DNA of 64,000 nucleotides from Nanobdellota archaeon (GTDB lineage Archaea; Nanobdellota; Nanobdellia; Woesearchaeales; GCA-2686295): contig JAHJQL010000017.1 of NCBI GenBank assembly GCA_018819065.1, positions 35,952-99,951 on the forward strand, in the 5' to 3' direction. The position numbers were made by a program, and so were the translations under genes. Positions 8,412 through 59,157 of the stretch are shown here, piece after piece. Position 1 is the stretch's first letter, and every line of letters begins with the position of its first letter. Below the pieces are notes generated by a model. It did not search any database. It was not told where the DNA came from and saw only the letters and a list, made by a program, of their open reading frames with translations.

Positions 8412-8422
8412 TTTGTGGATGA

Positions 8423-16844: not shown

Positions 16845-16968
16845 AAAGAAGAAGCCAATCAAGAGAACTATTTAAAGTTTTTGAAAAATAGCTATAATAT
16901 ATATTATATAGTGAAAATCTATATATACTTAAATAATACCACTAACTAATAACAACAAAGGTGATAAT

Positions 16969-22575: not shown

Positions 22576-22600
22576 AAAGTTTTTATATTTAAAGTTAACT
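22576..22600 (-). promoter_or_regulatory. archaeal TATA/BRE-like box upstream of the tRNA-like gene
   Basis: The minus-strand TTTAAATATAAAAAC is centred ~27 nt upstream of the putative tRNA 5' end. Confidence 0.45.
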
Positions 22601-25084: not shown

Positions 25085-25114
25085 CGTACATGTTCTTTTG
25101 AAAAATTAAAAAAA

Positions 25115-26413: not shown

Positions 26414-26567
26414 TTTTACGTACCCCCTAATTTGGTTTCTTTTTTTCTTAATGTAAAAGAAAGTTCCTCGTCGAAACCCCCTATACAAACACGAAATTAA
26501 ACAAATATATAAAGCTTTCGTTTATTTCTTCATTCATCAGTGAAAACTTTTTGTTTTTATTTTCTAG

Positions 26568-40504: not shown

Positions 40505-41791
40505 TCACCCACGATTTTTTAAAAGCCATTTCCAAACAGGCAAAATACTTATTTTTCTATTCCCAACTTTTAATTCTTCCTCTTCAGACATTGTTAATAT
40601 TAAAAGATTGTCGCATGAAAATTCTTTGCTTGCTAGCAGCAATGATCTTATTTCTCTGTCTCTTGTTTCAAAATTGGATATATCATAGCAGACCTGAATG
40701 AGTTCTTCTATTTTTTTGCCACTTTTTATTACAAAATCCACTTCGTTTTTAGTGGCGTTTTGGTAATATGCCGTGTCTTTATTTCTCCTGAGCAATTCAA
40801 CAAAAACCATGTTTTCCAGCAATCTTCCCTTATCATCTACGAAATTTATGCGCAACAGTCCGTTATCTATAAAATAAATTTTCGGAATTGATTGCTCTGA
40901 TTTCTTATATGATAATGAGAATTTATTTAGCATAAAAATAAAGAATGAGTCTTCCAAGTAGCCAAGGTAGTTGTATATTGCGTCTTTGCTGGACTTTATC
41001 TGTTGAGACTTTAAGTAATTATAAAATTTATTGGCTGAAAATTCTTTAGAAATCAATAACGCTCTCATCATTGTCTTCATCAAAAAGATATTTCTTATCT
41101 TGTGCCTTTCAATAATGTCTCTTAATATTGCTGTATCAAAAATATCTCTTAGTATCTTTTCTCTTTCTGTTGAGTAAAGTGCCACTTCAGGGTATCCTCC
41201 AAAATTCAAGTACTCATCAAAATAGTTCAGGATTATGCCTTCTTCTTTTGAAGATAGAAATTTAGGCACATTAAATGACTTAAAGGTTAAGAACTCTTTG
41301 AAAGATAATGGTAATATGTTGTATGTTAGGCTTCTTCCTCTCATGCTGGTTGCTAACTCTTTGCTTAAAAGCTTGGATGATGAACCTGTTATTATTACCT
41401 TGATTTTTTGATCAATGCATGTTCTTACAAACAATTCCCAATTTACTACATTCTGTATTTCATCAAGAAATAACCATAATTCCTCTTTCTTGTTTTTAGG
41501 AAAGATCTGCTGGTACGCTTCAAGCAATAATGAAAGATCTTTTGAATTTATTACTCCCAGGTCTCCACGCTCAAAATTTATGTAGATTGTTTTATCTTTG
41601 CCGTTTTTTTTTGCAACTTCTTCTGTAAGCATCAACATTTCAGAAGTTTTGCCTGCCCTTCTTGGTCCTATTAGAGAATAAGCTCTGTTTATGTTCAAGT
41701 CCAAAGGTATGTTTATGTGTCTTGATATTAAATTTTTGGGAGATGATTCGTTCCAGTCTTTTATAATTTTAATCCAATATTGCACATCCAT
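40505..41791 (-). CDS. AAA+ ATPase of the COG1373 / AAA_14-DUF4143 family
   Basis: Walker A GPRRAGKTS, Walker B LFLDEIQ, and the C-terminal DUF4143-like region common in archaea. Confidence 0.7.
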   Translation of the reverse strand: MDVQYWIKIIKDWNESSPKNLISRHINIPLDLNINRAYSLIGPRRAGKTSEMLMLTEEVAKKNGKDKTIYINFERGDLGVINSKDLSLLLEAYQQIFPKNKKEELWLFLDEIQNVVNWELFVRTCIDQKIKVIITGSSSKLLSKELATSMRGRSLTYNILPLSFKEFLTFKSFNVPKFLSSKEEGIILNYFDEYLNFGGYPEVALYSTEREKILRDIFDTAILRDIIERHKIRNIFLMKTMMRALLISKEFSANKFYNYLKSQQIKSSKDAIYNYLGYLEDSFFIFMLNKFSLSYKKSEQSIPKIYFIDNGLLRINFVDDKGRLLENMVFVELLRRNKDTAYYQNATKNEVDFVIKSGKKIEELIQVCYDISNFETRDREIRSLLLASKEFSCDNLLILTMSEEEELKVGNRKISILPVWKWLLKNRG

Positions 41792-41947: not shown

Positions 41948-43708
41948 TTAGTCCAAAGCAAGTTTTTCACTGTCCCAAACATCTTTTTGGTTGTCTTCTC
42001 TTTTGATTAAGAATTTATCAATCACTAAATAATCTATGCCTGTACCCATCATACACTTGTAAGCATCAAATGGTGTGCATACGATTGGCTCGCCTCTGAT
42101 GTTAAAGGATGTGTTTATCAGTATTGGAATGCTTGAGAGTTCTCCAAACTTCTTGATTAAATTATAGTATAAATGGTTTTGTTCTCGCCTAATAGTCTGC
42201 AAGCGCCCACTGCCATCAACGTGAGTTACTGAAGGTATTTTTTTGTGCCATTCTTTTTTTATTGGGTAAACCATTAACATATAATCAGTTGGTGCGGGGA
42301 TTGGGTTATCACACTCAAAGTATGTTAATGCATCATCTTCACAAACAACTGGTGCAAAAGGCCTAAATTTTTCCCTGTGCTTGACTTTCTCATTTAACAA
42401 CTGCTTTGCTTTTGGATTGCAAGGGTTTGCCAAGATGCTTCTGTTACCAAGTGCTCTTGGTCCCCACTCCATTCTGCCTTGAAACCACCCAACAACCTTG
42501 TTTTCAAAGATTAACTTAGCAGTTTGTTCTATTAAGTCAGATTCATCTTTGAAAGTTGAGTATTTTACCTTATTTTTGTCTAAGAAAACCTTTATCTCTT
42601 TTGTTGAAAATTCAGGCCCTAAAGATGCGTTTTTGAAAGGAAAAACTCTTTTATGACTAAGAATTGAGTGGTATATGTAAGCTGCAACTCCAATACTCGT
42701 TCCCCCATCTGAGGCGTTTGGCTGCATCCAAACATCTTTAAAAGGTGTGTTTTTGAGTATTTTGCCGTTGAAAACGCTGTTTAAGCCAACACCGCCAGAA
42801 AGAACTAATTTTTCACAGTTTGTAGCTTGATAAACATAGTTTAACATTCTTGTCATGACTTCTTCAGTTACTAATTGAAGGGCTGCAGCGATGTCTTTAT
42901 GTCTCTTTGTCATCTCAGATCCTTTCTTTGTAATTGGTCCTCCTAACAAATCACATAGTTTCTTTGAAGGCATCCTGTCAGAGTAGTGGTATTTGAAGTA
43001 AGACATGTCAAACCTGTAGCTGCCATCAGATTTTATATCAATGACTTTTCTTAGTTTTTTGTAATAAGGATTTGTTTTTTTATTCATGTCACCGTATGCT
43101 GAAAGACCCATGACCCGATACTCTGAATTATTCACACTCATTCCAAGATACGCCGTTATTGTTGAGTATAATAGTCCAATTGAGTGTGGAAACCTTATTT
43201 CTTTGAACAAGTGGATTTTGTTGTTTTCCCCAACGCCATAAGCTGTTGTTGTCCACTCACCAACGCCATCAACTGTTAAAATAGCTGCTTTTTCAAATGG
43301 GCTGACTAAAAACGTGCTTGCGGCGTGGGCTAAGTGGTGCTCTATGAATAATACGTCACCTTTGTATTTTAGCTTTTTTCTAATGACAGATGTAATCCTT
43401 AGCTTTTCATTCATCCAAGAAGGCATAAAGCTTAAGAAAGCCTTAAAGCTTTTTGGAAACATTTCTAAGTGCGAAGATATCATCCTCTCAAACTTCAGCA
43501 TCGGCTTTTCGTAAAAGCCAATGTAATCAACCTTGTTTACGCTGATTTTTTGATCTTTTAAGCAATATTCAATTGCATTTATCGGAAATGAGTTATCATG
43601 CTTTTTTCTAGTAAAACGCTCCTCTTCTGCAGCTGCAACTATTACTCCATCTTTAAGTAGCGCAGCTGATGAGTCGTGGTAATAACAACTCATTCCAAGT
43701 ACGTACAT
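41948..43708 (-). CDS. carbamoyltransferase (NodU/CmcH family)
   Basis: N-terminal GMSCYYHDSSAALLKDGVIVAAAEEERFTRKKHD, typical of NodU/CmcH/TobZ-type carbamoyltransferases. 586 aa. Confidence 0.85.
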   Translation of the reverse strand: MYVLGMSCYYHDSSAALLKDGVIVAAAEEERFTRKKHDNSFPINAIEYCLKDQKISVNKVDYIGFYEKPMLKFERMISSHLEMFPKSFKAFLSFMPSWMNEKLRITSVIRKKLKYKGDVLFIEHHLAHAASTFLVSPFEKAAILTVDGVGEWTTTAYGVGENNKIHLFKEIRFPHSIGLLYSTITAYLGMSVNNSEYRVMGLSAYGDMNKKTNPYYKKLRKVIDIKSDGSYRFDMSYFKYHYSDRMPSKKLCDLLGGPITKKGSEMTKRHKDIAAALQLVTEEVMTRMLNYVYQATNCEKLVLSGGVGLNSVFNGKILKNTPFKDVWMQPNASDGGTSIGVAAYIYHSILSHKRVFPFKNASLGPEFSTKEIKVFLDKNKVKYSTFKDESDLIEQTAKLIFENKVVGWFQGRMEWGPRALGNRSILANPCNPKAKQLLNEKVKHREKFRPFAPVVCEDDALTYFECDNPIPAPTDYMLMVYPIKKEWHKKIPSVTHVDGSGRLQTIRREQNHLYYNLIKKFGELSSIPILINTSFNIRGEPIVCTPFDAYKCMMGTGIDYLVIDKFLIKREDNQKDVWDSEKLALD

Positions 43709-44250: not shown

Positions 44251-44583
44251 TTGATGCAAATAATACAAATAATAGGAATACTATTCGCACTATTTGCGTA
44301 TAGCAGGACTATCCTAAGATTTAAAGACAAGAGAATTACAGCAAAAGAGTTCTTGTTCTGGACAATAGTGTGGGTGGGTGTGATAATTGTTGCAATAATT
44401 CCTGGAGTTATGAGTGGGCTGTCAAGATTTTTAGGAATAGGAAGACCAATCGATATAATCGTCTACGCAAGCATAATAATCTTGTTTTACTTGATATTTC
44501 GAATTTATGTTAAAATCGAAGATGTTGAGCAAAACATCACAAAGATAGTTAGAGAAACTGCAATTAGAAGAAAGAAAAAATGA
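44251..44583 (+). CDS. DUF2304-like small membrane protein
   Basis: 110 aa, 3 TM helices plus a basic tail, a family usually adjacent to glycosyltransferases. Its stop overlaps the GT4 start. Confidence 0.5.
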   Translation: MMQIIQIIGILFALFAYSRTILRFKDKRITAKEFLFWTIVWVGVIIVAIIPGVMSGLSRFLGIGRPIDIIVYASIIILFYLIFRIYVKIEDVEQNITKIVRETAIRRKKK

Positions 44584-45713
44584 ACATTTTATTTCTAACG
44601 GAATACTTTCCACAATCAGACAAAGGAGAAATATCTGGTGGAGTTGAAGCAAGATGTTTTTATCTTGCAAAAGAATTAAGTAAAAATCATAAAATCATAG
44701 TAGTAACTTCTTGGAGAAAAAGACAAAAAAGAGTTAACAAAATAGGAACAATCATTGTTGAAAGAGTTGGACCAAATCACAAATACTCAAATAAAGGAAG
44801 TATTTTCTCAAGATTATTGTTTGCAATTTATGCTTATAAAAGAGCAAAAATAAAAAAAGCAGACGTTGTTGATGGATTTAATTTCACAACTTATATTCCT
44901 GCCTATTTTGCAGCAAAAAAGATTAATGCCAAAAAGATAGCAACTTATCATGAAACTTGGGTTGGAGAATGGATAAAAAATAAAGGATTAATCACAGGAT
45001 TAATTGGTGAATTACTTGAAAGAATTACTTTAAAACTAAAATGGGATTTAATAATTGCAGTTTCTAATTTTACAAAAGAAAAACTAGAACAAACGAGCCC
45101 AGAATTAAACAAAAGAGTAGTCTACAACGGCGTTATGATGAATGACTTTGAAAAGATAAAAACTACAAAAGACGAAGGATTTAGGATTGTGTGCGTATCA
45201 AGGCTGATAAAAACCAAAAGACAAGAGACAATACTAAAAGCGCTAAAAGAACTAAAAGACGAAGAAATAACAGCAGTATTTGTTGGTGATGGAGATGATA
45301 AAGAATACTTTAAGAAAAGAATTAAAGAATTCAAATTAGAGAAACAAGTCAGATTCACAGGATTTCTAAAAACCAAAGAAGAAGTCATAAAAGAAATAAA
45401 AAAGTCACATGTATTAGTGCATCCATCTGCAGTCGAAGGATTTGGAATAACAGTAATAGAAGGAATGGCAGCAGGAGTTCCAGTGATATGCTCAGATATT
45501 GAACCATTAAAAGAAGTCACTAATAATGGACTATGCGGATTAATATTCAAACTAGATGATTACAAAGAACTAGCAGAAAAAATAAAAACATTAAAAAACG
45601 ACAAAGAAAAATATGAAGAGATGAAAGAAAAAGGGTTAAAAAGAGCGAAAGAATTTGAATGGAAAACAATAGCGAAGGAGTATGAAAAAGCAATAATAAA
45701 AAAGAGTTCATAA
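44580..45713 (+). CDS. GT4 (GT-B) glycosyltransferase
   Basis: The C-terminal EGFGITVIEGMAAGVPVICSD motif is the GT4 signature. Confidence 0.8.
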   Translation: MNILFLTEYFPQSDKGEISGGVEARCFYLAKELSKNHKIIVVTSWRKRQKRVNKIGTIIVERVGPNHKYSNKGSIFSRLLFAIYAYKRAKIKKADVVDGFNFTTYIPAYFAAKKINAKKIATYHETWVGEWIKNKGLITGLIGELLERITLKLKWDLIIAVSNFTKEKLEQTSPELNKRVVYNGVMMNDFEKIKTTKDEGFRIVCVSRLIKTKRQETILKALKELKDEEITAVFVGDGDDKEYFKKRIKEFKLEKQVRFTGFLKTKEEVIKEIKKSHVLVHPSAVEGFGITVIEGMAAGVPVICSDIEPLKEVTNNGLCGLIFKLDDYKELAEKIKTLKNDKEKYEEMKEKGLKRAKEFEWKTIAKEYEKAIIKKSS

Positions 45714-46273
45714 TGAAAGAAGAGATAAAAAAACAATTTGATGAACACATAACTGCTGTTAAGGACAATTTTGATTTGGCTGAAAAAGTTGAGAACGCTT
45801 CAAGGTTGATTATAGATGCACTTAAAAACGAGAAAAAGATTCTTATCTGCGGCAACGGCGGAAGCGCAGCAGATGCCCAGCACATAGCTGCAGAGTTAAT
45901 GGGTAAGTATGAAAAGATGAGACCAGCACTTGCTGCAGTGGCGCTGACAACAGATACAAACATGCTCACTGCTTGGAGCAACGATGACTGTTATGAAAAC
46001 GTGTTTTCAAGACAAGTCGAAGGACTTGGCGCTAAAGGAGATGTTTTAATTGGAATAAGCACATCTGGAAACTCGGAGAATATCATAAGAGCAATGACTG
46101 CTGCTAAGAAAAAAGGATTAAAAACAATCTCTTTCATTGGAAAAGACGGGGGAAATATGAAAGGACTTGCAGATGTTGAGATACACATAAAACATGACCG
46201 GACGTCAAGGGTGCAGGAGGTTCAAGAATTATGTTATCATATAATGTGCGGAGCTGTGGAGAACGCTTTTTAG
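45713..46273 (+). CDS. gmhA: sedoheptulose-7-phosphate isomerase (SIS domain)
   Basis: ILICGNGGSAADAQHIAAEL, GISTSGNSENI. 186 aa. Confidence 0.85.
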   Translation: MKEEIKKQFDEHITAVKDNFDLAEKVENASRLIIDALKNEKKILICGNGGSAADAQHIAAELMGKYEKMRPALAAVALTTDTNMLTAWSNDDCYENVFSRQVEGLGAKGDVLIGISTSGNSENIIRAMTAAKKKGLKTISFIGKDGGNMKGLADVEIHIKHDRTSRVQEVQELCYHIMCGAVENAF

Positions 46274-46310
46274 TTAACTATTTATATTCTTTTTAATTCT
46301 TAAAAAAAAG

Positions 46311-47756
46311 ATGAAAGAGAAACTCAAAAGGATAATTGGAGATTTTTCTAAGAAAAAGATTCTAATCATTGGAGACATAATGATTGACAAGTATATATAT
46401 GGTGAGGTTACTAGAATAAGCCCAGAGGCACCAGTGCAAATTGTAAAAGTAAAAAGAGAGGTTTACACGCTTGGTGGTGCTGGAAACGTAGCAAACAACA
46501 TCAGAAGCTTAGATGCAAAATCAGTTGTTGTAAGTGTAGTTGGAGAAGATAAAGAAGGCGAACTGCTAAGAAAATTGTTGAAGAACAAAGATATAAGTTT
46601 TGAACTTATTAAAACCAAGAAGCCAACCACAATAAAAACTAGGGTGATTGGACAACAACAACAACTTTTAAGGATAGACTATGAAAATATACAAGACGTT
46701 AACAGCGAACAATTATTAAAAGCAATCAAAAAAGAAATGAAGAATTGTAACGGCGTAATAATATCCGACTACGCGAAAGGAGTAGTCACAAAAGAACTTG
46801 TAAAAACGGTTGTTTTGCTAGCAGGAAAAAAGCCCGTTGTGATTGATCCAAAACACAAGGAGCTTGATTATTACAAGAACGCAACCATCATCACTCCAAA
46901 CGAGAAAGAAGCGTATGAATTAAGCAATTTAGATCTAAAAATAGATTTAAAAGAAGTAATAACTCATCTTGAAAACAAGCTAAACTGCAAAGTAATAGTT
47001 ACAAGAGGCGAAAAAGGGATTAGTTTTTTAAAAGAAGGAAAACAAATAGATGTACCAACAATAGCAAGAGAAGTCTACGACGTATCAGGCGCCGGCGACA
47101 CAGTGATAAGTGCATTGACGCTGGCTGTTTGCTCAGGAGCAGATTTAGAAGAAGCAGCGCTAATAGCAAACCAGGCAGCAGGGATAGTTGTTGGAAAGTT
47201 TGGAACTGCAACAACCACAAGAAAAGAATTATTGTTCGGGTTTGAGAAGATGAACGCAAAGATAAAAACAAGAGAAGAAATCATCCAGATAAGAAAAGAA
47301 CTAAAGAAAAAAGGTAAAAAAGTGGTGTTTACAAACGGCTGCTTTGACATACTACACATCGGACACGTAAGGCTACTTCAAAAAGCAAAGGAGTATGGCG
47401 ACGTATTAATACTAGGATTAAACACTGACGCATCGGTAAGAAGGCTAAAAGGACCAAGCAGACCAGTGAATAACCAAGAGGACAGGGCAGAAGTCATATC
47501 AGGACTAGAAAGTGTTGATTATATAGTATTCTTTGGCGAAGACACACCTGTAGAGATAATTAAGAAGCTAAAACCAGACGTGCATGTAAAAGGAGGAGAT
47601 TACAACCCACATGATTACAAACAAATGCCAGAAGCAAAGACAGTACATGAATATGGAGGAGTTGTAGAGATAATAAAACTAACAGATGGAAAGTCAACGA
47701 CAAACATAATTAATAAGATGAATTTTCTCCACAACGAAAAGAGTAGTTCACACTAA
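46311..47756 (+). CDS. hldE: bifunctional D-glycero-beta-D-manno-heptose-7-phosphate kinase / heptose-1-phosphate adenylyltransferase
   Basis: pfkB kinase domain (LGGAGNVANN, DVSGAGDTVISAL) plus a cytidylyltransferase domain (VVFTNGCFDILHIGHVRLL). The present C-terminus KMNFLHNEKSSSH appears non-native; see the remnant at 49429..49512. Confidence 0.85.
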   Translation: MKEKLKRIIGDFSKKKILIIGDIMIDKYIYGEVTRISPEAPVQIVKVKREVYTLGGAGNVANNIRSLDAKSVVVSVVGEDKEGELLRKLLKNKDISFELIKTKKPTTIKTRVIGQQQQLLRIDYENIQDVNSEQLLKAIKKEMKNCNGVIISDYAKGVVTKELVKTVVLLAGKKPVVIDPKHKELDYYKNATIITPNEKEAYELSNLDLKIDLKEVITHLENKLNCKVIVTRGEKGISFLKEGKQIDVPTIAREVYDVSGAGDTVISALTLAVCSGADLEEAALIANQAAGIVVGKFGTATTTRKELLFGFEKMNAKIKTREEIIQIRKELKKKGKKVVFTNGCFDILHIGHVRLLQKAKEYGDVLILGLNTDASVRRLKGPSRPVNNQEDRAEVISGLESVDYIVFFGEDTPVEIIKKLKPDVHVKGGDYNPHDYKQMPEAKTVHEYGGVVEIIKLTDGKSTTNIINKMNFLHNEKSSSH

Positions 47757-47762
47757 TATAAA

Positions 47763-49103
47763 ATGAAATATAGTGAATCTGAAACATTAGAACTGAAAAA
47801 ATCCACTTCAGAAATAAATGAAGCCATAATTTCAATAGTTGCAATTTTAAATAAGCACAATGCAGGAGAATTAATTTTTGGAATATCTCCAAACGGAACT
47901 GTAAACGGACAAAGTTTTTCTGAAAAGACATTAAGAGATATTTCTCAAAAGATAGCAAATTCTATTGAACCAAAAATATATCCTCGAGTAGAGCCTCAAA
48001 AAATTGGTGAAAAATATTGTATAATTGTAAAATTTGTAGGAGATGAACCAATTTACTATGCTCAAGGCAAAGCATATGTGAGAGTTGCTGATGAGGATAA
48101 ACTCATGTCTGCAAAAGAAATAGAAAAAAGAATACAATCAAAAAGTAATCTTAAATGGGATTCTTTTGTTTCAGATGTTTCTTTTGAAAAAGTCAATGAA
48201 ACTCAATTAAAAAAGTATATTGAAGAAGCAAGAAAAACCGAACGAATTAATTTTTCTTATTCTAATAAAAAAGAAGTTCTTGAAAAACTTGAGTTAATTA
48301 AGGGAAATAATCTATTAAATGCAGGTAAAATATTATTTTATGATGCAACAGAAGTTCAGACCGCGGTTTTTGCAGGAACATCAAAAAATACTTTTTTAGA
48401 TATTAAAGATAAGACTGCAAATATTTTTGAATTGATAGAATTTTCTGAAAAATACATTAAAGAACATATTGATTGGAGGGCAGATTTAAGCACAGGGACT
48501 CGGCAAGAGATACCTGAAATTCCTATAAGAGCAATATCTGAAAGCCTGGTTAATTCTTTTTGCCACAGGGATTATACTGCTCCTGAAAGCAATAAAGTTG
48601 CGATTTATAAAGACAGAATTGAAATTTGGAATCCTGGAGAGTTCCCATCTGAATTTAAACCATTAGATTTTGTGAAAAAAGAATTGCCATCAGTTCTTAG
48701 AAATCCAAAAATCGCAAAAATATTATACTATAATAGAAAAATTGAAAAATGGGGTTCTGGACTTCGTCGTATTTATGATGAGTGTAAAGAACACGATGTC
48801 AAAGTCAAATTTAAAGTCTTAAAATATGGATTTAGTGTTATATTTTTTCGAAGCAAACCAAAAGTAACAAAGCAAGAATCGGACACAAACCAGACACAAA
48901 CCAGACACAAACCAGATGAAGAAAATAGACAGAAATGGATTTTAGACTACCTAAAAACTAATCAAACTATAAAATCTAAAGATATAATTCAAAAATTTAA
49001 AATTGTCAAAGATACATCTGTTCGAGACCTTAATAACCTTATTAAACAAAATAAAATCATTAAGAAAGGTGCAGGAAACAATGTGTGGTATGAGTTAAGA
49101 TGA
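47763..49103 (+). CDS. Schlafen/AlbA_2-domain protein with HATPase_c_4-like and C-terminal HTH (COG2865-like)
   Basis: N-terminal ESETLELKKS...AILNKHNAGELIFGISPNGTVNG (AlbA_2) and a mid region ...YKDRIEIWNPGEF. A short DNA tandem repeat acaaaccagac x3 lies at 48888-48922. Confidence 0.75.
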   Translation: MKYSESETLELKKSTSEINEAIISIVAILNKHNAGELIFGISPNGTVNGQSFSEKTLRDISQKIANSIEPKIYPRVEPQKIGEKYCIIVKFVGDEPIYYAQGKAYVRVADEDKLMSAKEIEKRIQSKSNLKWDSFVSDVSFEKVNETQLKKYIEEARKTERINFSYSNKKEVLEKLELIKGNNLLNAGKILFYDATEVQTAVFAGTSKNTFLDIKDKTANIFELIEFSEKYIKEHIDWRADLSTGTRQEIPEIPIRAISESLVNSFCHRDYTAPESNKVAIYKDRIEIWNPGEFPSEFKPLDFVKKELPSVLRNPKIAKILYYNRKIEKWGSGLRRIYDECKEHDVKVKFKVLKYGFSVIFFRSKPKVTKQESDTNQTQTRHKPDEENRQKWILDYLKTNQTIKSKDIIQKFKIVKDTSVRDLNNLIKQNKIIKKGAGNNVWYELR

Positions 49104-49387
49104 AAAAGAACTACAGGCATTATGATCAAGAAAAATTTCTAGAAGCCCTTGAAAACATAGATAAGAAAAAAACTAATAAAATACTAGATTTAGGTTCTGG
49201 CAAGGGAGATTTCACACATGAAATACAGTCAGTATTCAAAGGTTCTAGGATAACTGCAACAAAGATATATAAATGGCTTTACAAGAAACGACTTAAAATA
49301 TTTACTAGAACAGCACAAATTTACAATAGAAAAAGGTCTTGTTACAAAGGTTTTTTTATCAGAAAACAAACACATACCGCTGCTTGA
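49100..49387 (+). pseudogene. truncated class-I SAM methyltransferase fragment
   Basis: Only motif I (ILDLGSGKGDFT) is present and the ORF is 95 aa. It overlaps the Schlafen-like gene stop by 4 nt. Confidence 0.4.
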
Positions 49388-49428
49388 AAAAATAATACCC
49401 AAAATAGCACTATCACAAATATAGATTT

Positions 49429-49512
49429 ATGAAAGAAAATGATGGAGAAGTAAGACTTGTAAAACTAATAGAAGGAAAATCAACGACAAACATAATTAAT
49501 AAAATAAAATGA
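49429..49512 (+). pseudogene. remnant of the original 3' end of hldE
   Basis: Encodes MKENDGEVRLVKLIEGKSTTNIINKIK*, aligning to the hldE C-terminal GGVVEIIKLTDGKSTTNIINK. 23 nt (tcaacgacaaacataattaataa) are identical to 47699-47721. Its TGA overlaps the hldD ATG. Confidence 0.6.
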
Positions 49513-50456
49513 TAATCGTTACAGGTGGAGCAGGATTTATCGGTAGTTGTATTGTAAAAGGCTTAAATGACTTAGGAATTTCTAATATAATTATTGTTGA
49601 TGAACTAGGCACCGACGAGAAGTGGAAAAACCTCGTTAATCTAAAGTATAAAGACTTTATCCATAAAAACAATTTCTTAGAAGAATTAAAACTGATGAAA
49701 AACATCGACTTAATAATTCATATGGGCGCATGCTCATCAACAACAGAAACAGATTCAGATTATTTGATAGATAATAACTTCAAGTATAGCAAAGAATTGT
49801 TTGACTGGTGTTTAAAGAATAACTGCAGATTGATATACGCAAGCAGTGCAGCGACGTACGGCGACGGAAGCATTGGTTATGATGATTCAAAAACAGACGA
49901 GTTAAAGCCTCTGAATATGTATGGATATACAAAAAAATTATTTGACCAATACGTTTTAAACTCAGAAAACAAACCAAAGCAATGCGTCGGACTAAGATTC
50001 TTCAACGTCTACGGCCCAAACGAATATCATAAAGGAAAAATGGCTTCGGTAATATTTCACTCGTTTAACCAGATAAAAAAAGAAAAAGAGATAAAACTAT
50101 TCAAATCATACAAGAAAGAATACTCTGACGGAGAGCAAAAAAGAGACTTTGTATACGTAAAAGACACAGTAGAAGTAGTTCTGTTCATGATGAAGAATGA
50201 TAAAATTAACGGTATATTCAACGTTGGAACAGGAGAAGCAAGAAGCTTTAATGACTTGGCAAGAAGCGTGTTTAAAGCAATGAACCTAAAAGAAAATATA
50301 AAATATGTGGATATGCCGCAAGGACTAAAAGAAAAATACCAATACTACACACAAGCAAACATTGAAAAACTAAGAAAAGCAGGCTACAAAAAGAAGTTTT
50401 ACAGCCTAGAAGAAGGAACAAAAGACTATGTGTGTAAATATTTAGAAAAAATGTGA
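49509..50456 (+). CDS. hldD: ADP-L-glycero-D-manno-heptose 6-epimerase
   Basis: MIIVTGGAGFIGSCIVKGLNDLGISNIIIVDEL... matches the RfaD/HldD N-terminus closely. 315 aa SDR. Confidence 0.9.
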   Translation: MIIVTGGAGFIGSCIVKGLNDLGISNIIIVDELGTDEKWKNLVNLKYKDFIHKNNFLEELKLMKNIDLIIHMGACSSTTETDSDYLIDNNFKYSKELFDWCLKNNCRLIYASSAATYGDGSIGYDDSKTDELKPLNMYGYTKKLFDQYVLNSENKPKQCVGLRFFNVYGPNEYHKGKMASVIFHSFNQIKKEKEIKLFKSYKKEYSDGEQKRDFVYVKDTVEVVLFMMKNDKINGIFNVGTGEARSFNDLARSVFKAMNLKENIKYVDMPQGLKEKYQYYTQANIEKLRKAGYKKKFYSLEEGTKDYVCKYLEKM

Positions 50457-50488
50457 ATTATTAGAATAAATTTCAAGTTCATAAAATA

Positions 50489-51487
50489 ATGAAAATAAAC
50501 ATAATAAATAGTTCTCCAAAAAATAGCGCAATATGGAAAGTAGGATATTATAATTATCTTGAATTAAAAAAAGACACTCATTATGATGTTAAATTTATAG
50601 ATTTATGGGAAGAAAACAAAGTATCTCATAACAATATAATTAGAGCATTACAACTTCTAAAAGGAATAAATCTAAATTTAAAGAAAGACGAAATAAATTA
50701 TTACATGACCCCCCTAATGTCAAAAACAATGAGGATAAATAAAGCAAAACAAAACATCATGTTTATACATGATTTGTATCCGTTGTATTATTCAGGAATA
50801 GGACTTAAAACAGTATGCAAAATACTCTATAAACAATCGACATTTGCAAATCTAATAGTTACTAACTCCGATACAACAAAGAATGAATATTTACAAGAAT
50901 ATGGTAAAACAAATAAAATATTTTCAAACCATCTTGGATTAGATAAAAAATATTTTAAAGTAAAAACTGTAAAAAAACCTAAGAAATTAACTTTCATAAG
51001 CATAGGAAGAGATGAACCAAGAAAAAATCTTGAATTTATAATTAATATTCTTAACAAAATTAATGTAGAATTTGAACTAATAAGAATAGGTGAATTTAGC
51101 AAGAAAAACATATCTAAGTTGAATAAAATAAAAAATAAAATACGAATATACAAAAATGTCAATGAAAATGAATTAATAAAACTGTATTCAAAATCACACA
51201 TTTTACTATTTCCATCGACTTATGAAGGATTTGGAATGCCACCAATAGAAGCAATGGCATGTGAATGCATACCATTAGTATCAGACAAAACAAGTTTGCC
51301 AGAAGTAGTTCAAAATGAAGAACTAATAATTCCTCTTGAAGAAGAAAAATGGATTGAAAAAATAAAACAAATAATTAAAGATGAAAGTTACAAAAAAGAA
51401 TTAATACAATTTGGAAAACAACAAATAAATAAATATATTTGGAAAGAACATAAAGAAAGATTTGAAAAAATATTGAATTATTTATAA
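50489..51487 (+). CDS. GT4/GT1-type glycosyltransferase
   Basis: C-terminal LLFPSTYEGFGMPPIEAMACECIPLVSD. Confidence 0.7.
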   Translation: MKINIINSSPKNSAIWKVGYYNYLELKKDTHYDVKFIDLWEENKVSHNNIIRALQLLKGINLNLKKDEINYYMTPLMSKTMRINKAKQNIMFIHDLYPLYYSGIGLKTVCKILYKQSTFANLIVTNSDTTKNEYLQEYGKTNKIFSNHLGLDKKYFKVKTVKKPKKLTFISIGRDEPRKNLEFIINILNKINVEFELIRIGEFSKKNISKLNKIKNKIRIYKNVNENELIKLYSKSHILLFPSTYEGFGMPPIEAMACECIPLVSDKTSLPEVVQNEELIIPLEEEKWIEKIKQIIKDESYKKELIQFGKQQINKYIWKEHKERFEKILNYL

Positions 51488-51510
51488 AAATAAATTTCAG
51501 ATGTGCTAAA

Positions 51511-52467
51511 ATGTATATAACTCAAAAAAAATATTGGTCTTTTCTTTTCACAATCGACATTATTGGAAACATATTATTTTTTTGGACAAAACTAAAAAAA
51601 CCTCCTAAAAGAATAAATAAAATCCTATTTATAAGACTTGAACATATAGGAGATATGGTACTTGCAACACCCATATTTGAAAGTTTCAAAAAAGAACATC
51701 CTGAATGTAAAATTCACGTGTTATGTAAAACCTTAAGTGAACCAATAATTAAATATAATCCTTATGTTAATAAAATAATTACATATGACCCTTCATGGAT
51801 GATACAAAGACAAGAAGATCCAAAAAAAACTTTTTATTCGTTAATATCTACTCTTCGAAAAGAAAAATATGATTTAGTATTTGAAATGCATGGAGACCCA
51901 AGAAATAATTTAATAACATTTTTAACTGGAAGTTATACAATAGGATATTCTTGTAGAGGTGGAGGATTTTTCTTAAATAAAATAATTCAATATAATCCTA
52001 AGAAAAGAATGATTGAACAAAATCTAGATTTAATAACTAATTACTGTAAAAAAACTACTGACAAAACAAGAATATTTGTTGATAATAATTCAAAAAAAGA
52101 AGCAACCAAGTTAATGAAAAAGTATAATCTTAAAAGTAAACAATATATAATTATCAATCCTTTATCTGGCAGAAAAGAAAAAGATTTGACAACAGAAGAA
52201 GTTAATAAATTTATTAAAGAATATTCTGATCAAAAAATAGTAATCACAGGATCAAAATCAGAAATTGAAAAAAATAAAGTATATAATAAATATACAAATA
52301 TAATAAATGTGACAGGTAAAACTAATCTTTTAGTATTAACAGAAATTGTGCAAAACGCAAAAAAAGTAATAGCACCAGATACAGGAATAATACACATTGC
52401 AAAAGCTGTCAAAACACCATTTGAAGCAGTATATAAGACAACTGATAAAAGTGTGTGGGGGTACTAG
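51511..52467 (+). CDS. GT9 glycosyltransferase (ADP-heptose heptosyltransferase family)
   Basis: ILFIRLEHIGDMVLATPIFESFKKEHPECKIHVLC (N-terminal GT9 signature), ...IINPLSGRKEKDLT..., KVIAPDTGIIHIAKAV. Confidence 0.75.
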   Translation: MYITQKKYWSFLFTIDIIGNILFFWTKLKKPPKRINKILFIRLEHIGDMVLATPIFESFKKEHPECKIHVLCKTLSEPIIKYNPYVNKIITYDPSWMIQRQEDPKKTFYSLISTLRKEKYDLVFEMHGDPRNNLITFLTGSYTIGYSCRGGGFFLNKIIQYNPKKRMIEQNLDLITNYCKKTTDKTRIFVDNNSKKEATKLMKKYNLKSKQYIIINPLSGRKEKDLTTEEVNKFIKEYSDQKIVITGSKSEIEKNKVYNKYTNIINVTGKTNLLVLTEIVQNAKKVIAPDTGIIHIAKAVKTPFEAVYKTTDKSVWGY

Positions 52468-54014
52468 AATTGCTTAAAAAAACAGAACGAACTACGAACG
52501 ATTCTAACACGAAGAATTTTAAAGTTTTATTTGTCTTGCCAGATTTTAATTACGTTGAAGAATACATGCCTGATTATTCTGGAAGCTTTTCGCTCGGGTT
52601 AGGATATGTTTCTGCAATGCTAAAAAAACACGAGTTTCAAACGTCACTAATTCATTTGACAAATAATATTCCTAAAAAGGAATTTGTAAAAAGAATAAAA
52701 GATGAAAACCCAGATCTAATTGGTTTTAGCATTTTTTCACATCAAAGAGCTGATGCTGAGAAATATGTTGGATTTATCAGAGATGCCAAAATAAATATAC
52801 CTATAATAATTGGTGGAGTTCACGCAACAACAGACCCTGAAGATGCAATAAGAATTAAAGGAGTCAATTATGTTTGTGTTGGTGAAGGAGAATATCCACT
52901 GCTTGACTTATGCAACACATTATATGAACAAAAAAATACTACAAACATTCCAAATATATGGGTAAAAGAAAAACAAAAAATAATACAAAATGAAATAAGA
53001 CCACTATTGCAAAATCTTGATGAACTTTCGTTTCCAGACCGAGAAATGTTTGATTATAAAAATCTTTCAGACACAAAAATGGGTGTTTTTAATGTTCTTG
53101 CAACAAGAGGCTGCCCATATAATTGCACATACTGCTGCAATCATGTATATCAGAAAATATACAAAAATAAAGGAAAATATGTTCGATTTAGAAAACCAGA
53201 ATTTGTAATTCAAGAAATAAAAGAAGGATTAAAAAAATATCCTTATTTAAAATATGTAAATCTGGAAGATGACGCTTTTTGTTTAGATAAAAAGTTTGTA
53301 AAAGAATTTTCAAAAGAGTTTAAAAAAAAAATTGGTAAACCATTTAATGCAAATACACGTGTAAATCTAATAAATGATGAAGTCGCAAAAAACTTATCAA
53401 AAGGAGGATGTATACATGTTGCAGTTGGGATTGAGTCAGGAAACCAACAAATTAGAGAAAAAATACTCAAAAGATTTATGACAAATGAACAAATTCATAA
53501 CGCAATTAAAACGTGCCATAAATATGGAATAACAGTCGGAACATATAACATAATAGGGCTACCACAAGAAAGCATAAAAAATGTTCTTGAAACAATAAAA
53601 CTAAATGTGAAATCAAAAGCAGACTCAATGCATGTTTCAATATTTCAACCATATCCAAACACTGAATTATATAATTATTGTATAAAAAATAAAATGATAA
53701 AAAACTCAAAAGTCAGCACATTCTTTGGAGAATATCTTCTTAAAAATAATACAATAACAAAAGAAGAAGTAACGTTTGCTTACAAATATTTTTACATTTA
53801 TGCTAAAGTATATAAAACAATTGGAAAATTAAAAATAATAGAAAAAACACTTGACAAAACATTCACAGCGAAGAAAACACATAAATTGCAATTAGCAATT
53901 TATCCGATTATGTTTTTTATAACAAACCCGATGATAGCCATTTACAGAATTATGATGAACATATCACCAAAAGCAACAAGAAAAATAAAATATTTGATTC
54001 TTGGGAGAAAATAA
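52455..54014 (+). CDS. cobalamin-binding radical SAM enzyme (class B RS, probable methyltransferase)
   Basis: N-terminal B12-binding-like domain (IGFSIFSHQ...IIIGGVHATTDPED) and a radical SAM cluster motif ATRGCPYNCTYC. Confidence 0.8.
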   Translation: MGVLELLKKTERTTNDSNTKNFKVLFVLPDFNYVEEYMPDYSGSFSLGLGYVSAMLKKHEFQTSLIHLTNNIPKKEFVKRIKDENPDLIGFSIFSHQRADAEKYVGFIRDAKINIPIIIGGVHATTDPEDAIRIKGVNYVCVGEGEYPLLDLCNTLYEQKNTTNIPNIWVKEKQKIIQNEIRPLLQNLDELSFPDREMFDYKNLSDTKMGVFNVLATRGCPYNCTYCCNHVYQKIYKNKGKYVRFRKPEFVIQEIKEGLKKYPYLKYVNLEDDAFCLDKKFVKEFSKEFKKKIGKPFNANTRVNLINDEVAKNLSKGGCIHVAVGIESGNQQIREKILKRFMTNEQIHNAIKTCHKYGITVGTYNIIGLPQESIKNVLETIKLNVKSKADSMHVSIFQPYPNTELYNYCIKNKMIKNSKVSTFFGEYLLKNNTITKEEVTFAYKYFYIYAKVYKTIGKLKIIEKTLDKTFTAKKTHKLQLAIYPIMFFITNPMIAIYRIMMNISPKATRKIKYLILGRK

Positions 54015-54970
54015 TGCTAAAAGATAAATTAATATTAGAAACTGTTAATTGCTTAATATGTAAAAAAAATAAATTCAAGGTTAATAAAAAAATAATTATT
54101 AATACTAAAAAAGAAGCTAAAATAGTAAAATGTAAAAATTGCGGATTAGTATATTTATCACCAAGACCCAAAAATGTTGAACTATTATATTCTGAAAAAT
54201 ACTGGGAATTAAATGAAAATAAAAGTTTTGAACATTTAAACAAACAAAGAACTGATGCTGTTAAAAAAACAATTGAAAAAATTGAAAAATACATATCTAA
54301 ACATCTGAATCAAGAACAAAAAATAAACATTTTAGATATAGGTGCAGGAGATGGACTTTTTCTAAACAGCATAAATAAAAAATTTAATAGATATGCAACA
54401 GAAATATCTAAAAGCGGTGTAAACTATCTTAAAAAAAAAGGAATAAAAAATGTTTATTGCGGAGATTTTAATGAAATAAACTTTAAAGAAAAATATGATG
54501 TTGTCAACATAAGTCATGTTATAGAACATCTTAAAAATCCCGCATATTTTTTAAAAAAAGTTAAAAAGATTATGAAAAAAGAAAGTATTTTGGTTATTTC
54601 AGCACCTAATGAAGATTCTTTTTTTACAAAAATAGTTAATTTACCAATTATAAGAAAACTGACTATCGAAAAAGATGAGTGGACGAATCAAAAAAAAGTC
54701 GACAAAATTGAATTCTGTTCAATAAAAAATAACAGCGAGTTAGGAGAAAGAAGATTTCTAATACATAATTTGCATCACTTTTATTTTTTTACACCTAAAA
54801 CAATTAAATATTTATTAAAAATTAACAAGTTTAAGATAGTTTATTTTTATGATGGAAATTTAATAAAAACAAACTCTTCAATTAAGAACATGATTAAAAA
54901 TAATTTTATTAATAAGTTATTCAAATTTTTTAATTCCCAAGAAGAATTATTAATCTTTGCAAAAATTTAA
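54014..54970 (+). CDS. class-I SAM methyltransferase with N-terminal Cys4 zinc ribbon
   Basis: CLICKKNKF...CKNCGLVY, then ILDIGAGDGLFLN motif I. Confidence 0.7.
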   Translation: MLKDKLILETVNCLICKKNKFKVNKKIIINTKKEAKIVKCKNCGLVYLSPRPKNVELLYSEKYWELNENKSFEHLNKQRTDAVKKTIEKIEKYISKHLNQEQKINILDIGAGDGLFLNSINKKFNRYATEISKSGVNYLKKKGIKNVYCGDFNEINFKEKYDVVNISHVIEHLKNPAYFLKKVKKIMKKESILVISAPNEDSFFTKIVNLPIIRKLTIEKDEWTNQKKVDKIEFCSIKNNSELGERRFLIHNLHHFYFFTPKTIKYLLKINKFKIVYFYDGNLIKTNSSIKNMIKNNFINKLFKFFNSQEELLIFAKI

Positions 54971-54972
54971 AA

Positions 54973-56127
54973 ATGAGAAAAATAAAATATTTAATATTAG
55001 ATAAATTGTTTTTTCTAATTAATAAAATTGTTAAGAAAAAAAAACCAAAAGTAGATGCTAAAACTATAAAAAAAGTTCTTATTATAAAATATTGTTGTAT
55101 TGGCGATGTTCTTATGACAACTCCTTTAATAAAAGGTATCAAACAAACATTTCCTAAAACGAAAATTGATTATTGTGTTGGTGAATGGTCAAAAGAAGTT
55201 TTAAAAGAAAATAAATCACTAAATAGAATATTTATTGACAAAAAAAATAACAGAAAAGAACTTAAAAGAGAATTAAAGAACAAATATGATTTAATATTTA
55301 TTTTAGATTTGGGTATTTCTGATCAATACTTTGCATATTCACTAAAACCAAAAATATTAGCAGGTCTTGACAGCATGAATAGAGGTTTTCTTTTGAACTA
55401 TAAAATGAAACATGAAGTTGATGATAATATTCATGAAACAGATGCATATCTTGGAGTTTTAGAGTCTCTTGGTTATAAAACAAAAGATAAACAAATGGAA
55501 ATGATTCTAACAAAAGAAGAGAAAAACTTCGGTTTAAATTTTATTAAAACAAACAATCTTGAAGATAAAAAAATGGTTGGAATATTTCCTGGTGGTGGAC
55601 ATAATCCGGGAACCACTATGAATTTAAAACAATGGGGAAGTGAAAAATATGCTGAATTAGTAAATAAATTAACAAATAATGATTTTTCTATAATATTGTT
55701 TGGTGGAAAAACTGATAAAGAAACAATTGATAATGTAAAAAAATTATTAAATAATAAGAATAAAGTAATTGATGCGTCAATAAAATATAATTTAAGACAA
55801 TCATCTGCATTAATAAGCACATGCGATTTATTTATTTCAAATGATTCAGGACCAATGCACATCGCATCAGCTCTTGGAGTGAAAACAATATCAATATTCG
55901 GACCTACAAATGCAAATCTATTAAAACCTTTAGGGAAAAATGATTTTATGTTTTACACAAATAAAAAATGCACTCCTAATTATACAAACAAAAATAACAA
56001 TCATGATTGTCATCCATGTTATAGACAAATAATAGGTGATTTTAATTATGGATGTCAAACAAAAGATTGCATGAAAAAAATACTTGTTGAGGATGTTGAA
56101 AAAAAAGTTTATGAAATACTACAATAA
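54973..56127 (+). CDS. GT9 glycosyltransferase (heptosyltransferase family), second copy
   Basis: VLIIKYCCIGDVLMTTPLIKGIKQTFPKTKIDYCV, VGIFPGGGHNPG, NDSGPMHIASALGVKTISIFGPT. Confidence 0.75.
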   Translation: MRKIKYLILDKLFFLINKIVKKKKPKVDAKTIKKVLIIKYCCIGDVLMTTPLIKGIKQTFPKTKIDYCVGEWSKEVLKENKSLNRIFIDKKNNRKELKRELKNKYDLIFILDLGISDQYFAYSLKPKILAGLDSMNRGFLLNYKMKHEVDDNIHETDAYLGVLESLGYKTKDKQMEMILTKEEKNFGLNFIKTNNLEDKKMVGIFPGGGHNPGTTMNLKQWGSEKYAELVNKLTNNDFSIILFGGKTDKETIDNVKKLLNNKNKVIDASIKYNLRQSSALISTCDLFISNDSGPMHIASALGVKTISIFGPTNANLLKPLGKNDFMFYTNKKCTPNYTNKNNNHDCHPCYRQIIGDFNYGCQTKDCMKKILVEDVEKKVYEILQ

Positions 56128-56758
56128 AGAATATGCTTTAAACCATCAAAAAAATGCTAAAGAGTATTGGGAGTATAAAGAAATATTTAGATTATTCACA
56201 CCTAAAAAAAATTCTTCAATATTAGAAATTGGCTGTAATACAGGTGACTTAATAAAACTTCTTTACGAAAGAGGCTACAAAAATATTTCAGGAATTGATA
56301 TAAACTCTCAAGCTGTTAAAATCGCAAAAAAAAAAGTTCCTAAAGCAAACATACAAATTAAAGATATCATGAAAACAATCCCAGAAAAAAAATACGATAT
56401 AATTTATGCATTACATATTATTGAACACTTTGAAAATACTGAAGATTTTCTTAAAAAAATTAAAAATTTACTTAATAATAAAGGAATACTTATAATTTCA
56501 TGTCCTAATAAAATAGCCTATTTAATGAGATTAGAACATTTTATCAGAGGAAAAAAGCACTGTTTTGATCCGACACATGAAAAATATTTCTCAATATTAG
56601 AATTACAAAAAGAATGTAGAAAAATAGGTTTTAAAATTATGAGAAAAAGCACTTTACCTCTTGATTTAATAACACAAAAAATCCTCGAAGGAAAAAATAT
56701 TAGAATTCCTGCAACGATATTTGGAGGTCATAATTATATAGTGTGTCAAAATGATTAA
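56084..56758 (+). CDS. class-I SAM methyltransferase
   Basis: ILEIGCNTGDL motif I and DIIYALHIIEHF motif II. It overlaps the upstream GT9 3' end by 44 nt. Confidence 0.7.
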   Translation: MLRMLKKKFMKYYNKEYALNHQKNAKEYWEYKEIFRLFTPKKNSSILEIGCNTGDLIKLLYERGYKNISGIDINSQAVKIAKKKVPKANIQIKDIMKTIPEKKYDIIYALHIIEHFENTEDFLKKIKNLLNNKGILIISCPNKIAYLMRLEHFIRGKKHCFDPTHEKYFSILELQKECRKIGFKIMRKSTLPLDLITQKILEGKNIRIPATIFGGHNYIVCQND

Positions 56759-58268: not shown

Positions 58269-58272
58269 AAAC

Positions 58273-59157
58273 ATGAAAACTATTATAAATTTATTAAAAT
58301 GTCCTGTTTGTAATTCAAACATTTCAGAAAATTTAAAGTGTGAACAATGTTCATACACAATCTCCAAAAAAAAAAATGTTTTTTTGTATAAACAGTTTCT
58401 AGACAAACAAATGTTGCGAGAAGACAACTTAAATAAAGAAATAATAAAAAATTCAAAAAAATTTAGAAAAGAAATAATTAATAAAAAAGGAATATTTTCA
58501 GTAAAAAAGATTATTAAAAGAATAAAAAAAGATAAAAAAATAAATAAAAACTCTGTAGTTCTTGAACTTGGCGGTGCAAATGGATGGTTATCAGAAATAG
58601 TATCTAAAGAAACTTCTAACGTATATAATACAGATATCTCATTTTGTTTTTTAAAGTATGGAAAAATTCCTTCTTTTCTTATCCCTATGAACAAAATTGA
58701 TAAAATATTCAAAAAAGAAAGTTTTGACATAGTCTGGGTTAATGCTGCATTGCATCATTGCGAAAATCTTGATGAAGTTTTTAAAGCTGTTAAGTATGTT
58801 CTTAAGAAAAAAGGGATATTCATAATCAGCAATGAACTAATTGTCGGAAAAATTATAAAAAATCCGGATGTAAAAAAAGCAAACGAAGCTGGAGCGCAGG
58901 ATTACCCTTATCAATTATCACATTATGTAAACACCTCAAAAAAATACTTGAAAACTTCAATTTTTTTGCCAGATGATTTGGATTATTTTATAAAAAATCC
59001 GCAAGTTATTCAAACAGGGTACAAAAGAATTATTTTTAGACTAATTAAAAAAGTTGGTTTTTTCAGATTAAAGGATACATTTTTATTTAAAAAAATATAT
59101 CTTGCTTTCGGAGAACTATTTGGTGCACCAGTATTAATAATATGCGAGAATGACTAA
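58273..59157 (+). CDS. class-I SAM methyltransferase with N-terminal zinc ribbon
   Basis: CPVCNSN...CEQCSY, then VLELGGANGW. Confidence 0.65.
   Translation: MKTIINLLKCPVCNSNISENLKCEQCSYTISKKKNVFLYKQFLDKQMLREDNLNKEIIKNSKKFRKEIINKKGIFSVKKIIKRIKKDKKINKNSVVLELGGANGWLSEIVSKETSNVYNTDISFCFLKYGKIPSFLIPMNKIDKIFKKESFDIVWVNAALHHCENLDEVFKAVKYVLKKKGIFIISNELIVGKIIKNPDVKKANEAGAQDYPYQLSHYVNTSKKYLKTSIFLPDDLDYFIKNPQVIQTGYKRIIFRLIKKVGFFRLKDTFLFKKIYLAFGELFGAPVLIICEND

Follow-up and report, generated by a model that had tools for sequence, protein, structure and literature searches.

In a 64-kb stretch of DNA from a Nanobdellota archaeon (contig JAHJQL010000017.1 of assembly GCA_018819065.1; the whole stretch is called the window hereafter), the heptose genes hldE and hldD are separated by a gene for a prokaryotic Schlafen protein (pSlfn), the remains of a methyltransferase gene and a 27-codon open reading frame (ORF) that repeats the 3′ end of hldE (Table 1). 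Both heptose genes belong to a glycan cluster whose members follow one another on the same strand in the order DUF2304, GT4, gmhA, hldE, hldD, GT4 and GT9. The hldE product scored above the NCBIfam cut-offs for rfaE_dom_I (TIGR02198, 352 bits) and rfaE_dom_II (TIGR02199, 201 bits), with both domains complete and the rfaE_dom_II match spanning residues 328–471. Its C-terminus reads ...GGVVEIIKLTDGKSTTNIINK followed by MNFLHNEKSSSH; the part before this tail ends ...EYGGVVEIIKLTDGKSTTNIINK, after which come only MNFLHNEKSSSH and the stop codon. At the other end of the interval, the TGA stop of the 27-codon ORF (49510–49512) overlaps the ATG of hldD (49509–49511).

The first-pass annotation, made from the sequence alone, had described this small ORF as reproducing the hldE C-terminus, with 23 identical nucleotides and a stop codon overlapping the hldD start. 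Each of these points was borne out, and the repeat proved longer than claimed: the two copies align over 74 nt without gaps and in register, at 78% identity and a spacing of 1,786 nt. An identical 23-nt core, TCAACGACAAACATAATTAATAA, lies at 47694–47716 and 49480–49502. On realignment within the window, the last 49 nt of the repeat matched at 90% identity (blastn E=1.4e-12), and the orphan peptide recovered the hldE C-terminus with tblastn at E=8e-7. The 16 mismatches between the copies are clustered, with 11 in the 25 nt of the 5′ part versus 5 in the 49 nt of the 3′ part (Fisher p=0.002), and an identical run of 23 nt is unusual given their number (permutation p=0.018). All seven codons of the STTNIIN motif are the same in both copies, including the locally rare ACG for threonine (P=0.0026 if drawn independently from local usage), whereas a relative (locus L021) that encodes the same peptide, GKSTTNIINKIK, departs from each of the two copies in the window at four synonymous positions. 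The shared codon choice, set against these synonymous differences, indicates that the identity of the core reflects shared DNA ancestry or a crossover and not only constraint on the protein. The 5′ part of the orphan belongs to another allele than the live hldE, and the overall pattern fits two distinct alleles that met at a point of crossover or conversion.

Comparison with homologues identifies the orphan as a true hldE 3′ end. It matched the C-termini of HldE proteins from one group of archaeal relatives (clade B, below) at E=6e-7, agreed with homologue P0013 at 17 of 25 residues, and begins its tail with the residues IK, the second most common tail start among HldE homologues (28 of 119). 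The 12-residue tail of the live protein, by comparison, resembled the tail of no homologue. It extends 12 residues past the conserved lysine, versus a median of 7 and a range of 2–21 among the 119 homologues, so that it is long but tolerable. A derivation of this tail from the 3′ end of the helicase gene that lies upstream in the putative donor operon was considered and is not supportable, as only ~9 of 15 nt match by eye. No conserved small leader ORF precedes hldD in the relatives, L021 having an unrelated 57-aa ORF and L023 none.

Table 1. Positions of the features discussed, numbered from the first nucleotide of the window
Feature	Position	Strand	Description or basis
hldE	46311–47756	+	bifunctional heptose-7-P kinase/heptose-1-P adenylyltransferase, 481 aa, intact; Pfam PfkB and CTP_transf_like
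Repeat copy 1, live hldE 3′ end (EYGGVVEIIKLTDGKSTTNIINKM)	47649–47722	+	repeat search, blastn/tblastn, codon-by-codon comparison
New hldE tail (MNFLHNEKSSSH and stop)	47718–47756	+	12 residues
Prokaryotic Schlafen gene	47763–49103	+	446 aa, full length; SLFN_AlbA_2, HATPase_c_4 (GHKL-type ATPase) and C-terminal winged helix-turn-helix (wHTH)
Methyltransferase pseudogene, N-terminal piece	49100–49258	+	frame 0, 53 codons, S-adenosylmethionine (SAM) motif I ILDLGSGKGDF
Methyltransferase pseudogene, C-terminal piece	49269–49424	+	frame +1, INGFT...IPLLEKIIPKIALSQI and stop; three-frame translation
Orphan hldE 3′ end, 27-codon ORF	49429–49512	+	hldE homology (repeat copy 2) at 49435–49508; encodes MKENDGEVRLVKLIEGKSTTNIINKIK and stop
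hldD	49509–50456	+	ADP-glyceromanno-heptose 6-epimerase, 315 aa, complete; TIGR02197, 432 bits versus a cut-off of 275
gmhA	45713–46273	+	
STT3/AglB oligosaccharyltransferase	37500–40361	-	upstream of the heptose cluster
AAA_14 and DUF4143 ATPase	40505–41791	-	
Carbamoyltransferase	41948–43708		
Giant surface proteins	26568–31913; 22595–26488	-	
WYL/Bro-N/tRNA-Phe/MazE-AbrB area	7905–9325; 12542–12617; 15930–16862	-	

The DNA between the two repeat copies (47717–49434, 1,718 nt) comprises the new hldE tail, the Schlafen gene and the methyltransferase pseudogene, and the left edge of the imported DNA lies at 47717. The Schlafen gene starts 6 nt past hldE; its TGA stop and the start codon of a 95-codon ORF (49100–49387) overlap as ATGA. 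This interval had been read in the first-pass annotation as an unrelated hldE tail, a 446-aa Schlafen/AlbA_2-HTH gene and a truncated methyltransferase, a description with which our Pfam, NCBIfam and phmmer searches agree, the last gene being a pseudogene. Its N-terminal piece gave sub-threshold Pfam matches to Methyltransf_23, Methyltransf_31 and DREV, and a phmmer search of the joined pieces against 1.8 billion representative sequences recovered Methyltransf_23/11 proteins of 224 and 239 aa (P0368 and P0369). The N-terminal piece aligned to residues 1–50 of such full-length relatives and the C-terminal piece (query residues 52–103) to residues 164–215, which implies that ~110 internal codons (~330 bp) were deleted, in addition to a frameshift. 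Full-length relatives also run ~7–9 residues beyond ALSQ, so that the right junction probably clipped the end of the gene by ~7 codons. This junction is abrupt, with methyltransferase homology ending at ~49421 and hldE homology beginning at 49435.

Two other origins of the methyltransferase piece were rejected. In relatives, a Type IIG enzyme is encoded directly after the Schlafen gene, but the piece is not the N-terminus of that enzyme, to which it is unrelated beyond the ATGA overlap, its full-length relatives being Methyltransf_23 proteins of 224–239 aa; nor was it recently copied from another methyltransferase gene of the cluster, as similarity to these is weak (E of at least 0.06). Repeat, domain, tRNA and Rfam scans revealed no integrase, tRNA gene, inverted repeat or Rfam element at the insertion site. 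The G+C content was uninformative as a sign of foreignness (29% in the Schlafen gene, 36% in hldE and 24% in the native GT4 gene). The coding strand of the Schlafen gene holds eight runs of five or more T residues versus 3.7 expected from codon shuffles (p=0.018), and a T7 run lies at 49351–49357, ~150 nt before hldD. Other genes of the cluster vary as much as the Schlafen gene in this respect, and we draw no conclusion from these tracts on polarity or foreignness.

The intact gene of the segment encodes a protein with three recognizable domains: SLFN_AlbA_2 (PF04326; 60.7 bits versus a cut-off of 25.3, residues 5–115), HATPase_c_4 (PF13749; 63.1 bits) and HTH_DeoR (25.7 bits), the latter two also above cut-off. 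An Ex4(E/D)xK catalytic motif at the start of the domain is among the defining features of pSlfns (PMC13056530), and the window protein carries the Ex4ExK RNase motif as E5-SETL-E10-L-K12, in which E5, E10 and K12 are invariant across 17 aligned homologues. The AlphaFold model of the 446-aa protein (pLDDT 75, residues 1–14 of low confidence) matched 3LMM, 2KYY, SLFN13, SLFN5, SLFN11/12/14 and the SAMD9 tRNase domain in Foldseek with probability 1.00, as well as histidine kinases and wHTH proteins. In every respect of sequence and predicted fold, the protein falls in the pSlfn HisKinase-HTH or 'Schlatpase' class, the distribution and mechanism of which have been described (PMC13056530; bioRxiv 10.64898/2026.05.29.728809); the HisKinase-HTH architecture accounts for 19.2% of pSlfns (PMC13056530), and the SLFN plus GHKL 'Schlatpase' supradomain occurs in 58.6% of prokaryotic SLFN proteins (bioRxiv 10.64898/2026.05.29.728809). 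The window protein shares with this class PF04326 with an intact Ex4ExK motif, the PF13749 GHKL ATPase, a C-terminal HTH and close homologues in defence operons, but differs in that its gene stands alone in a sugar-nucleotide operon of a DPANN archaeon. Its neighbours are glycan genes rather than a defence island, and a PADLOC scan of the protein itself gave weak domain-level matches. Location in a defence island holds for ~70% of pSlfns and is hence not obligatory. By homology, the protein is a candidate ATP-switched tRNA or RNA nuclease, with a most likely role in antiviral defence as an abortive-infection effector rather than in glycan metabolism.

The relatives of the Schlafen gene lie in other surroundings. 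The two closest homologues (76% and 69% identity, above the 62% of the best HldE homologue) are located between a gene for an HKD(PLD) and SNF2 helicase and that for a 1,221-aa Type IIG restriction-modification enzyme, with 4-nt overlaps, and a homologue of 66% identity stands alone ~4 kb from a tyrosine recombinase gene (L013–L016). DNA homology to these loci is confined to 47757–49119, that is, to the ORF itself. No Schlafen homologue was found in any of the 89 other heptose loci fetched (730 kb) or in the heptose clusters of the six archaeal relatives. Its occurrence beside restriction-modification and recombinase genes, together with its absence from other heptose loci, indicates that the Schlafen gene is mobile and foreign to the heptose operon. 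The 2.9 million viral contigs of IMG/VR contained neither a relative of the Schlafen protein nor an exact match to the 23-nt core, and an hldE–Schlafen–methyltransferase arrangement that would identify a donor was lacking both around the genes of the three nearest Schlafen relatives and around that of the HldE protein with the most similar C-terminus (P0014). As a separate observation, the operon holding the 69% homologue (L009, 1335–11306; also L010–L012 and L008) joins by 4-nt overlaps genes for a 1,065-aa HKD(PLD) and SNF2 helicase, the 451-aa Schlafen-GHKL-HTH protein, the 1,221-aa Type IIG enzyme and two unannotated ORFs of 278 and 308 aa, and is thus a candidate defence system of several genes, one of them for a Schlatpase.

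The two sides of the imported segment also differ in their affinities. We compared the cluster with loci of two Woesearchaeal clades, A (L020 and L022) and B (L021, L023 and L024), and identity to the two clades shifted along the cluster (Table 2). The left arm of the window, comprising STT3, carbamoyltransferase, two small ORFs and DUF2304, is syntenic with L020. On this evidence the heptose cluster is chimeric, with the switch from A to B affinity falling inside the 3′ end of hldE, and hldE itself is mosaic, residues 1–360 being nearer clade A and residues ~400–470 nearer clade B. Gene order is gmhA-hldE-GT4 in clade A and in L105, and gmhA-hldD-gmhB-hldE in clade B. In L024, which has the closest HldD (76%), the gene to which hldD is translationally coupled (ATATGA; 320–2172) is not a bifunctional hldE but an HldA-like one of 299 aa with the kinase alone, which shows that split and fused heptose kinase/adenylyltransferase genes coexist among these archaea. 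As for gmhB, which encodes the heptose bisphosphate phosphatase and lies between hldD and hldE in the clade-B relatives, no homologue was detectable across the 64-kb window.

Table 2. Amino-acid identity of proteins of the window cluster to those of the two clades
Protein	Clade A	Clade B
Carbamoyltransferase	63–75%	no homologue in the loci fetched
DUF2304	61–67%	53%
GmhA	64–69%	48–57%
HldE, residues 1–360	57–60%	38–49%
HldE, residues 400–470	55–59%	63–75%, shared 3-residue indel (NPxDYxxMPEAK)
HldD	25–41%	72–76%
GT9a	24–27%	60% (L021)

The explanation that we consider probable is that recombination anchored in the 3′ end of hldE brought in foreign DNA and pushed the previous 3′ end downstream, leaving a scar in the heptose/N-glycan cluster. 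The break falls within hldE, of which 25 codons occur in duplicate as two distinct alleles, so that the event is a 3′-end displacement and not a plain insertion at a gene junction. The insertion or cassette replacement of ~1.7 kb proposed in the first-pass annotation is supported by the foreign character of the Schlafen gene and by the affinity switch of the cluster, and needs correction as to the position of the break. The ancestral hldE would have ended ...GKSTTNIINKIK and a stop codon overlapping the start of hldD, and the junction before the event (the empty site) would read ...AATTAATAA joined directly to AATAAAATGATAATCG. The incoming DNA would have carried an hldE-like 3′ end of its own, the Schlafen-GHKL-wHTH gene and a small class-I methyltransferase gene, and would have undergone recombination with the chromosome at, or close to, the identical 23 nt coding for the conserved STTNIINK motif. 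Its other end would have been joined illegitimately, from a point ~7 codons before the methyltransferase stop to hldE codon ~445. The product would be a live hldE that retains all of its conserved residues but ends in 12 new ones, with the 25 codons of its former end 1.8 kb downstream and still overlapping hldD, and the imported genes in operon orientation between them. Coverage of the domain II model to residue 471 indicates that the event kept hldE functional. The methyltransferase gene would have decayed later, by the ~330-bp internal deletion and the frameshift, while the Schlafen gene stayed intact.

Two sub-mechanisms may be envisaged, both of which would leave the same product. In one, a circularized fragment extending from hldE-like codon ~445 to near the end of the methyltransferase gene would have entered by a single crossover in the 23–49 nt of homology, which explains the mismatch gradient. 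In the other, homology further upstream in hldE would have anchored a linear fragment, the opposite end of which was joined illegitimately (homology-facilitated illegitimate recombination), which explains the hldE mosaic. Our grounds for placing a crossover on the left are the gradient of mismatches and the hldE mosaic; how and in which direction the event took place, as well as co-transcription with the operon and Schlafen protein activity, are likewise inferred.

Several findings weigh against such a displacement. The former state that it presupposes, with hldE directly coupled to hldD, had likewise been assumed in the first-pass annotation from the overlap of the orphan stop with the hldD ATG; hldE and hldD are directly adjacent in only 3 of 73 metagenome HldD loci and in none of the six archaeal relatives examined. 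The empty site envisaged in related genomes, or any intermediate, was found neither in exact-protein look-ups and 90% cluster members nor in scans of genome collections and metagenomes, so that the insertion is a reconstruction and not an observed event. These searches returned either the same strain or relatives of at most 62% (HldE) or 76% (HldD) identity, and the contigs with exact genes come from essentially one strain, all of them occupied. One event does not explain every feature, as the live and orphan hldE ends are both clade-B-like, and the mosaic of hldE could predate the event. The methyltransferase is of a kind common in glycan clusters and hence may not have travelled with the Schlafen gene. 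With regard to the cargo itself, the catalytic N-terminus is modelled at pLDDT 32 (residues 1–10), and HisKinase-type pSlfns gave no protection from phage in the one published test panel, in E. coli (PMC13056530).

The history that competes most directly with displacement starts from two complete hldE genes. A clade-B block (hldE_B-hldD-GT4-GT9 and onwards) would have been acquired beside gmhA-hldE_A, with the Schlafen and methyltransferase genes in between; hldE_B would then have been deleted save for its last 25 codons, and gene conversion would have made the 3′ end of the surviving hldE B-like. Such a course accommodates the clade-B-like right arm (hldD and GT9a) next to a clade-A-like left arm, the B-like orphan with its 17 of 25 residues matching P0013 and the mosaic of the surviving hldE, and the methyltransferase pseudogene shows that deletions occurred at the locus. 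We nevertheless regard it as unlikely: the deletion would have to begin no more than ~10 nt from the 3′ end of the methyltransferase gene, gene conversion ought to have equalized the whole tract although the 25 nt upstream of the well-matched part are only 56% identical, and more events are needed than for displacement. That the orphan derives instead from a stand-alone adenylyltransferase (HldC-like) gene formerly located before hldD, with nothing inserted into hldE, is given scarcely any credence here. Stand-alone CTP_transf_like genes do occur near heptose genes in relatives (L022), and the coupling of the closest HldD relative to a kinase-only gene shows that split genes exist; yet 49 nt at 90% identity and an identical codon choice are far closer to the resident hldE than expected for old paralogues, and the orphan matches the ends of bifunctional clade-B HldE proteins best.

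Direct repeats of a target gene 3′ end flanking foreign DNA, an element-side copy that supplies the new gene end, identity concentrated in a core and a Schlafen relative ~4 kb from a tyrosine recombinase (L013–L016) are what a decayed site-specific integrative element would leave if the hldE 3′ end were its attachment site and the 23-nt core its attL/attR. We judge this improbable, since there is no integrase or mobility gene in or beside the 1.7 kb, the core and the Schlafen relatives are unmatched in the 2.9 million viral contigs, the right junction cuts the methyltransferase ORF and looks illegitimate rather than designed, and hldE was not found as a target in any second case. Finally, the source is a metagenome-assembled genome in which repeats can mis-join contigs, and the arrangement might in principle be an assembly chimera or the similarity a product of chance. 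Contigs from SRR6514730, SRR10598174 and SRR7059195 and assembly GCA_018819945.1 match the window at 99.98–100% identity in the parts that they cover, up to 21 kb. Both junctions are spanned with identical sequence in three of these four independent assemblies, and the fourth covers the left junction. A JGI strain with 1–3 amino-acid differences per protein also has the 481-aa HldE and the 446-aa Schlafen protein. The identical structure across assemblies makes an artefact unlikely, and chance is opposed by E-values of 1e-12 (DNA) and 8e-7 (protein), so that the probability of either is next to negligible.

Displacement of a gene 3′ end by recombination has precedents in Rhs and type VI secretion system (T6SS) effector-immunity modules, in which an analogous process leaves orphan 3′ ends (PMC5361080). 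The hldE locus shares with the Rhs, contact-dependent inhibition (CDI) and T6SS cases a homology anchor in a conserved gene, a new 3′ end with downstream genes, an orphan old end and the lack of an integrase (PMC5361080). It differs from them in that the displaced gene is a housekeeping sugar-nucleotide enzyme and not a polymorphic toxin, that there is one orphan and not an array, and that only the non-conserved tail changed, with no new function for hldE. Mosaic O-antigen and capsule clusters similarly combine switches of donor-lineage affinity within a cluster, pseudogene debris at the junction and fluid gene order among relatives, but here the cluster is an archaeal (DPANN) heptose/AglB-linked one, and a defence-type gene rather than glycan genes occupies the junction. 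Integrative elements that target gene 3′ ends also produce direct repeats of the target end around foreign DNA and bring an end that keeps the gene intact; the hldE locus, in contrast, has no recombinase, its repeats are diverged outside the 23-nt core, its right junction truncates another ORF and its cargo is only 1.7 kb.

The locus is a well-resolved case of recombination rebuilding a gene cluster in an uncultivated small-genome archaeon: one side of the breakpoint is confined to within ~15 nt and the other to the 23-nt core, and the displaced end, the imports and their decay are all visible. It also shows a Schlafen-GHKL-HTH gene moving on its own, as a unit of one gene, between restriction operons and loci of unrelated kinds, both in DPANN and in other archaea; members of this class were connected with antiviral tRNA cleavage only recently. 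As regards annotation, 'remnant' is the proper label for the 27-codon ORF as well as for the 95-codon 'methyltransferase', the tail of HldE is non-native and hldD has lost its direct coupling to hldE. The link between Schlafen-mediated defence and surface glycans hinted at in the first-pass annotation found no backing, as nothing beyond co-location suggests a functional tie. It is very unlikely that the hldE 3′ end is a recurrent recombination 'landing pad' in DPANN archaea for glycan-module swaps and the capture of defence genes, with the Schlafen nuclease co-transcribed with receptor-glycan genes so as to couple receptor remodelling to abortive infection, and the 27-codon ORF kept for translational coupling of hldD. 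The locus is a product of ordinary gene-cluster shuffling, involving known kinds of event and protein, with no new system and no demonstrated link between glycans and defence.

Elsewhere in the cluster, the GT4 and GT9 genes after hldD are followed on their 3′ side by genes for B12-radical-SAM enzymes, several small methyltransferases, GT9, GT2 and a flippase. Altogether, the region 44251–59904 holds two B12-radical-SAM enzymes, several small SAM methyltransferases and three GT9 heptosyltransferases, an enzyme set that suggests a heavily methylated heptose glycan. Between the STT3/AglB and carbamoyltransferase genes lies the gene for an AAA_14 and DUF4143 ATPase; in the syntenic relative L020, STT3 and carbamoyltransferase are adjacent, with no AAA_14/DUF4143 gene at that position. 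No significant repeats flank this gene, apparently another gene without a glycan function that has settled in the cluster, and its presence in addition to the Schlafen gene fits a cluster that simply accumulates foreign DNA. Genes for giant surface proteins adjoin the glycosylation cluster, among them a 1,781-aa protein with 12 Big_9/cadherin-like repeats in addition to PKD repeats, and neighbours with CARDB, NPCBM_assoc and Cep192-like Ig domains. Further away, genes for WYL-domain and Bro-N-domain proteins lie a few kilobases from tRNA-Phe, the sole tRNA gene of the window, with a 310-aa protein carrying a MazE/AbrB-type domain further on; this area may be mobile-element or defence-related debris.

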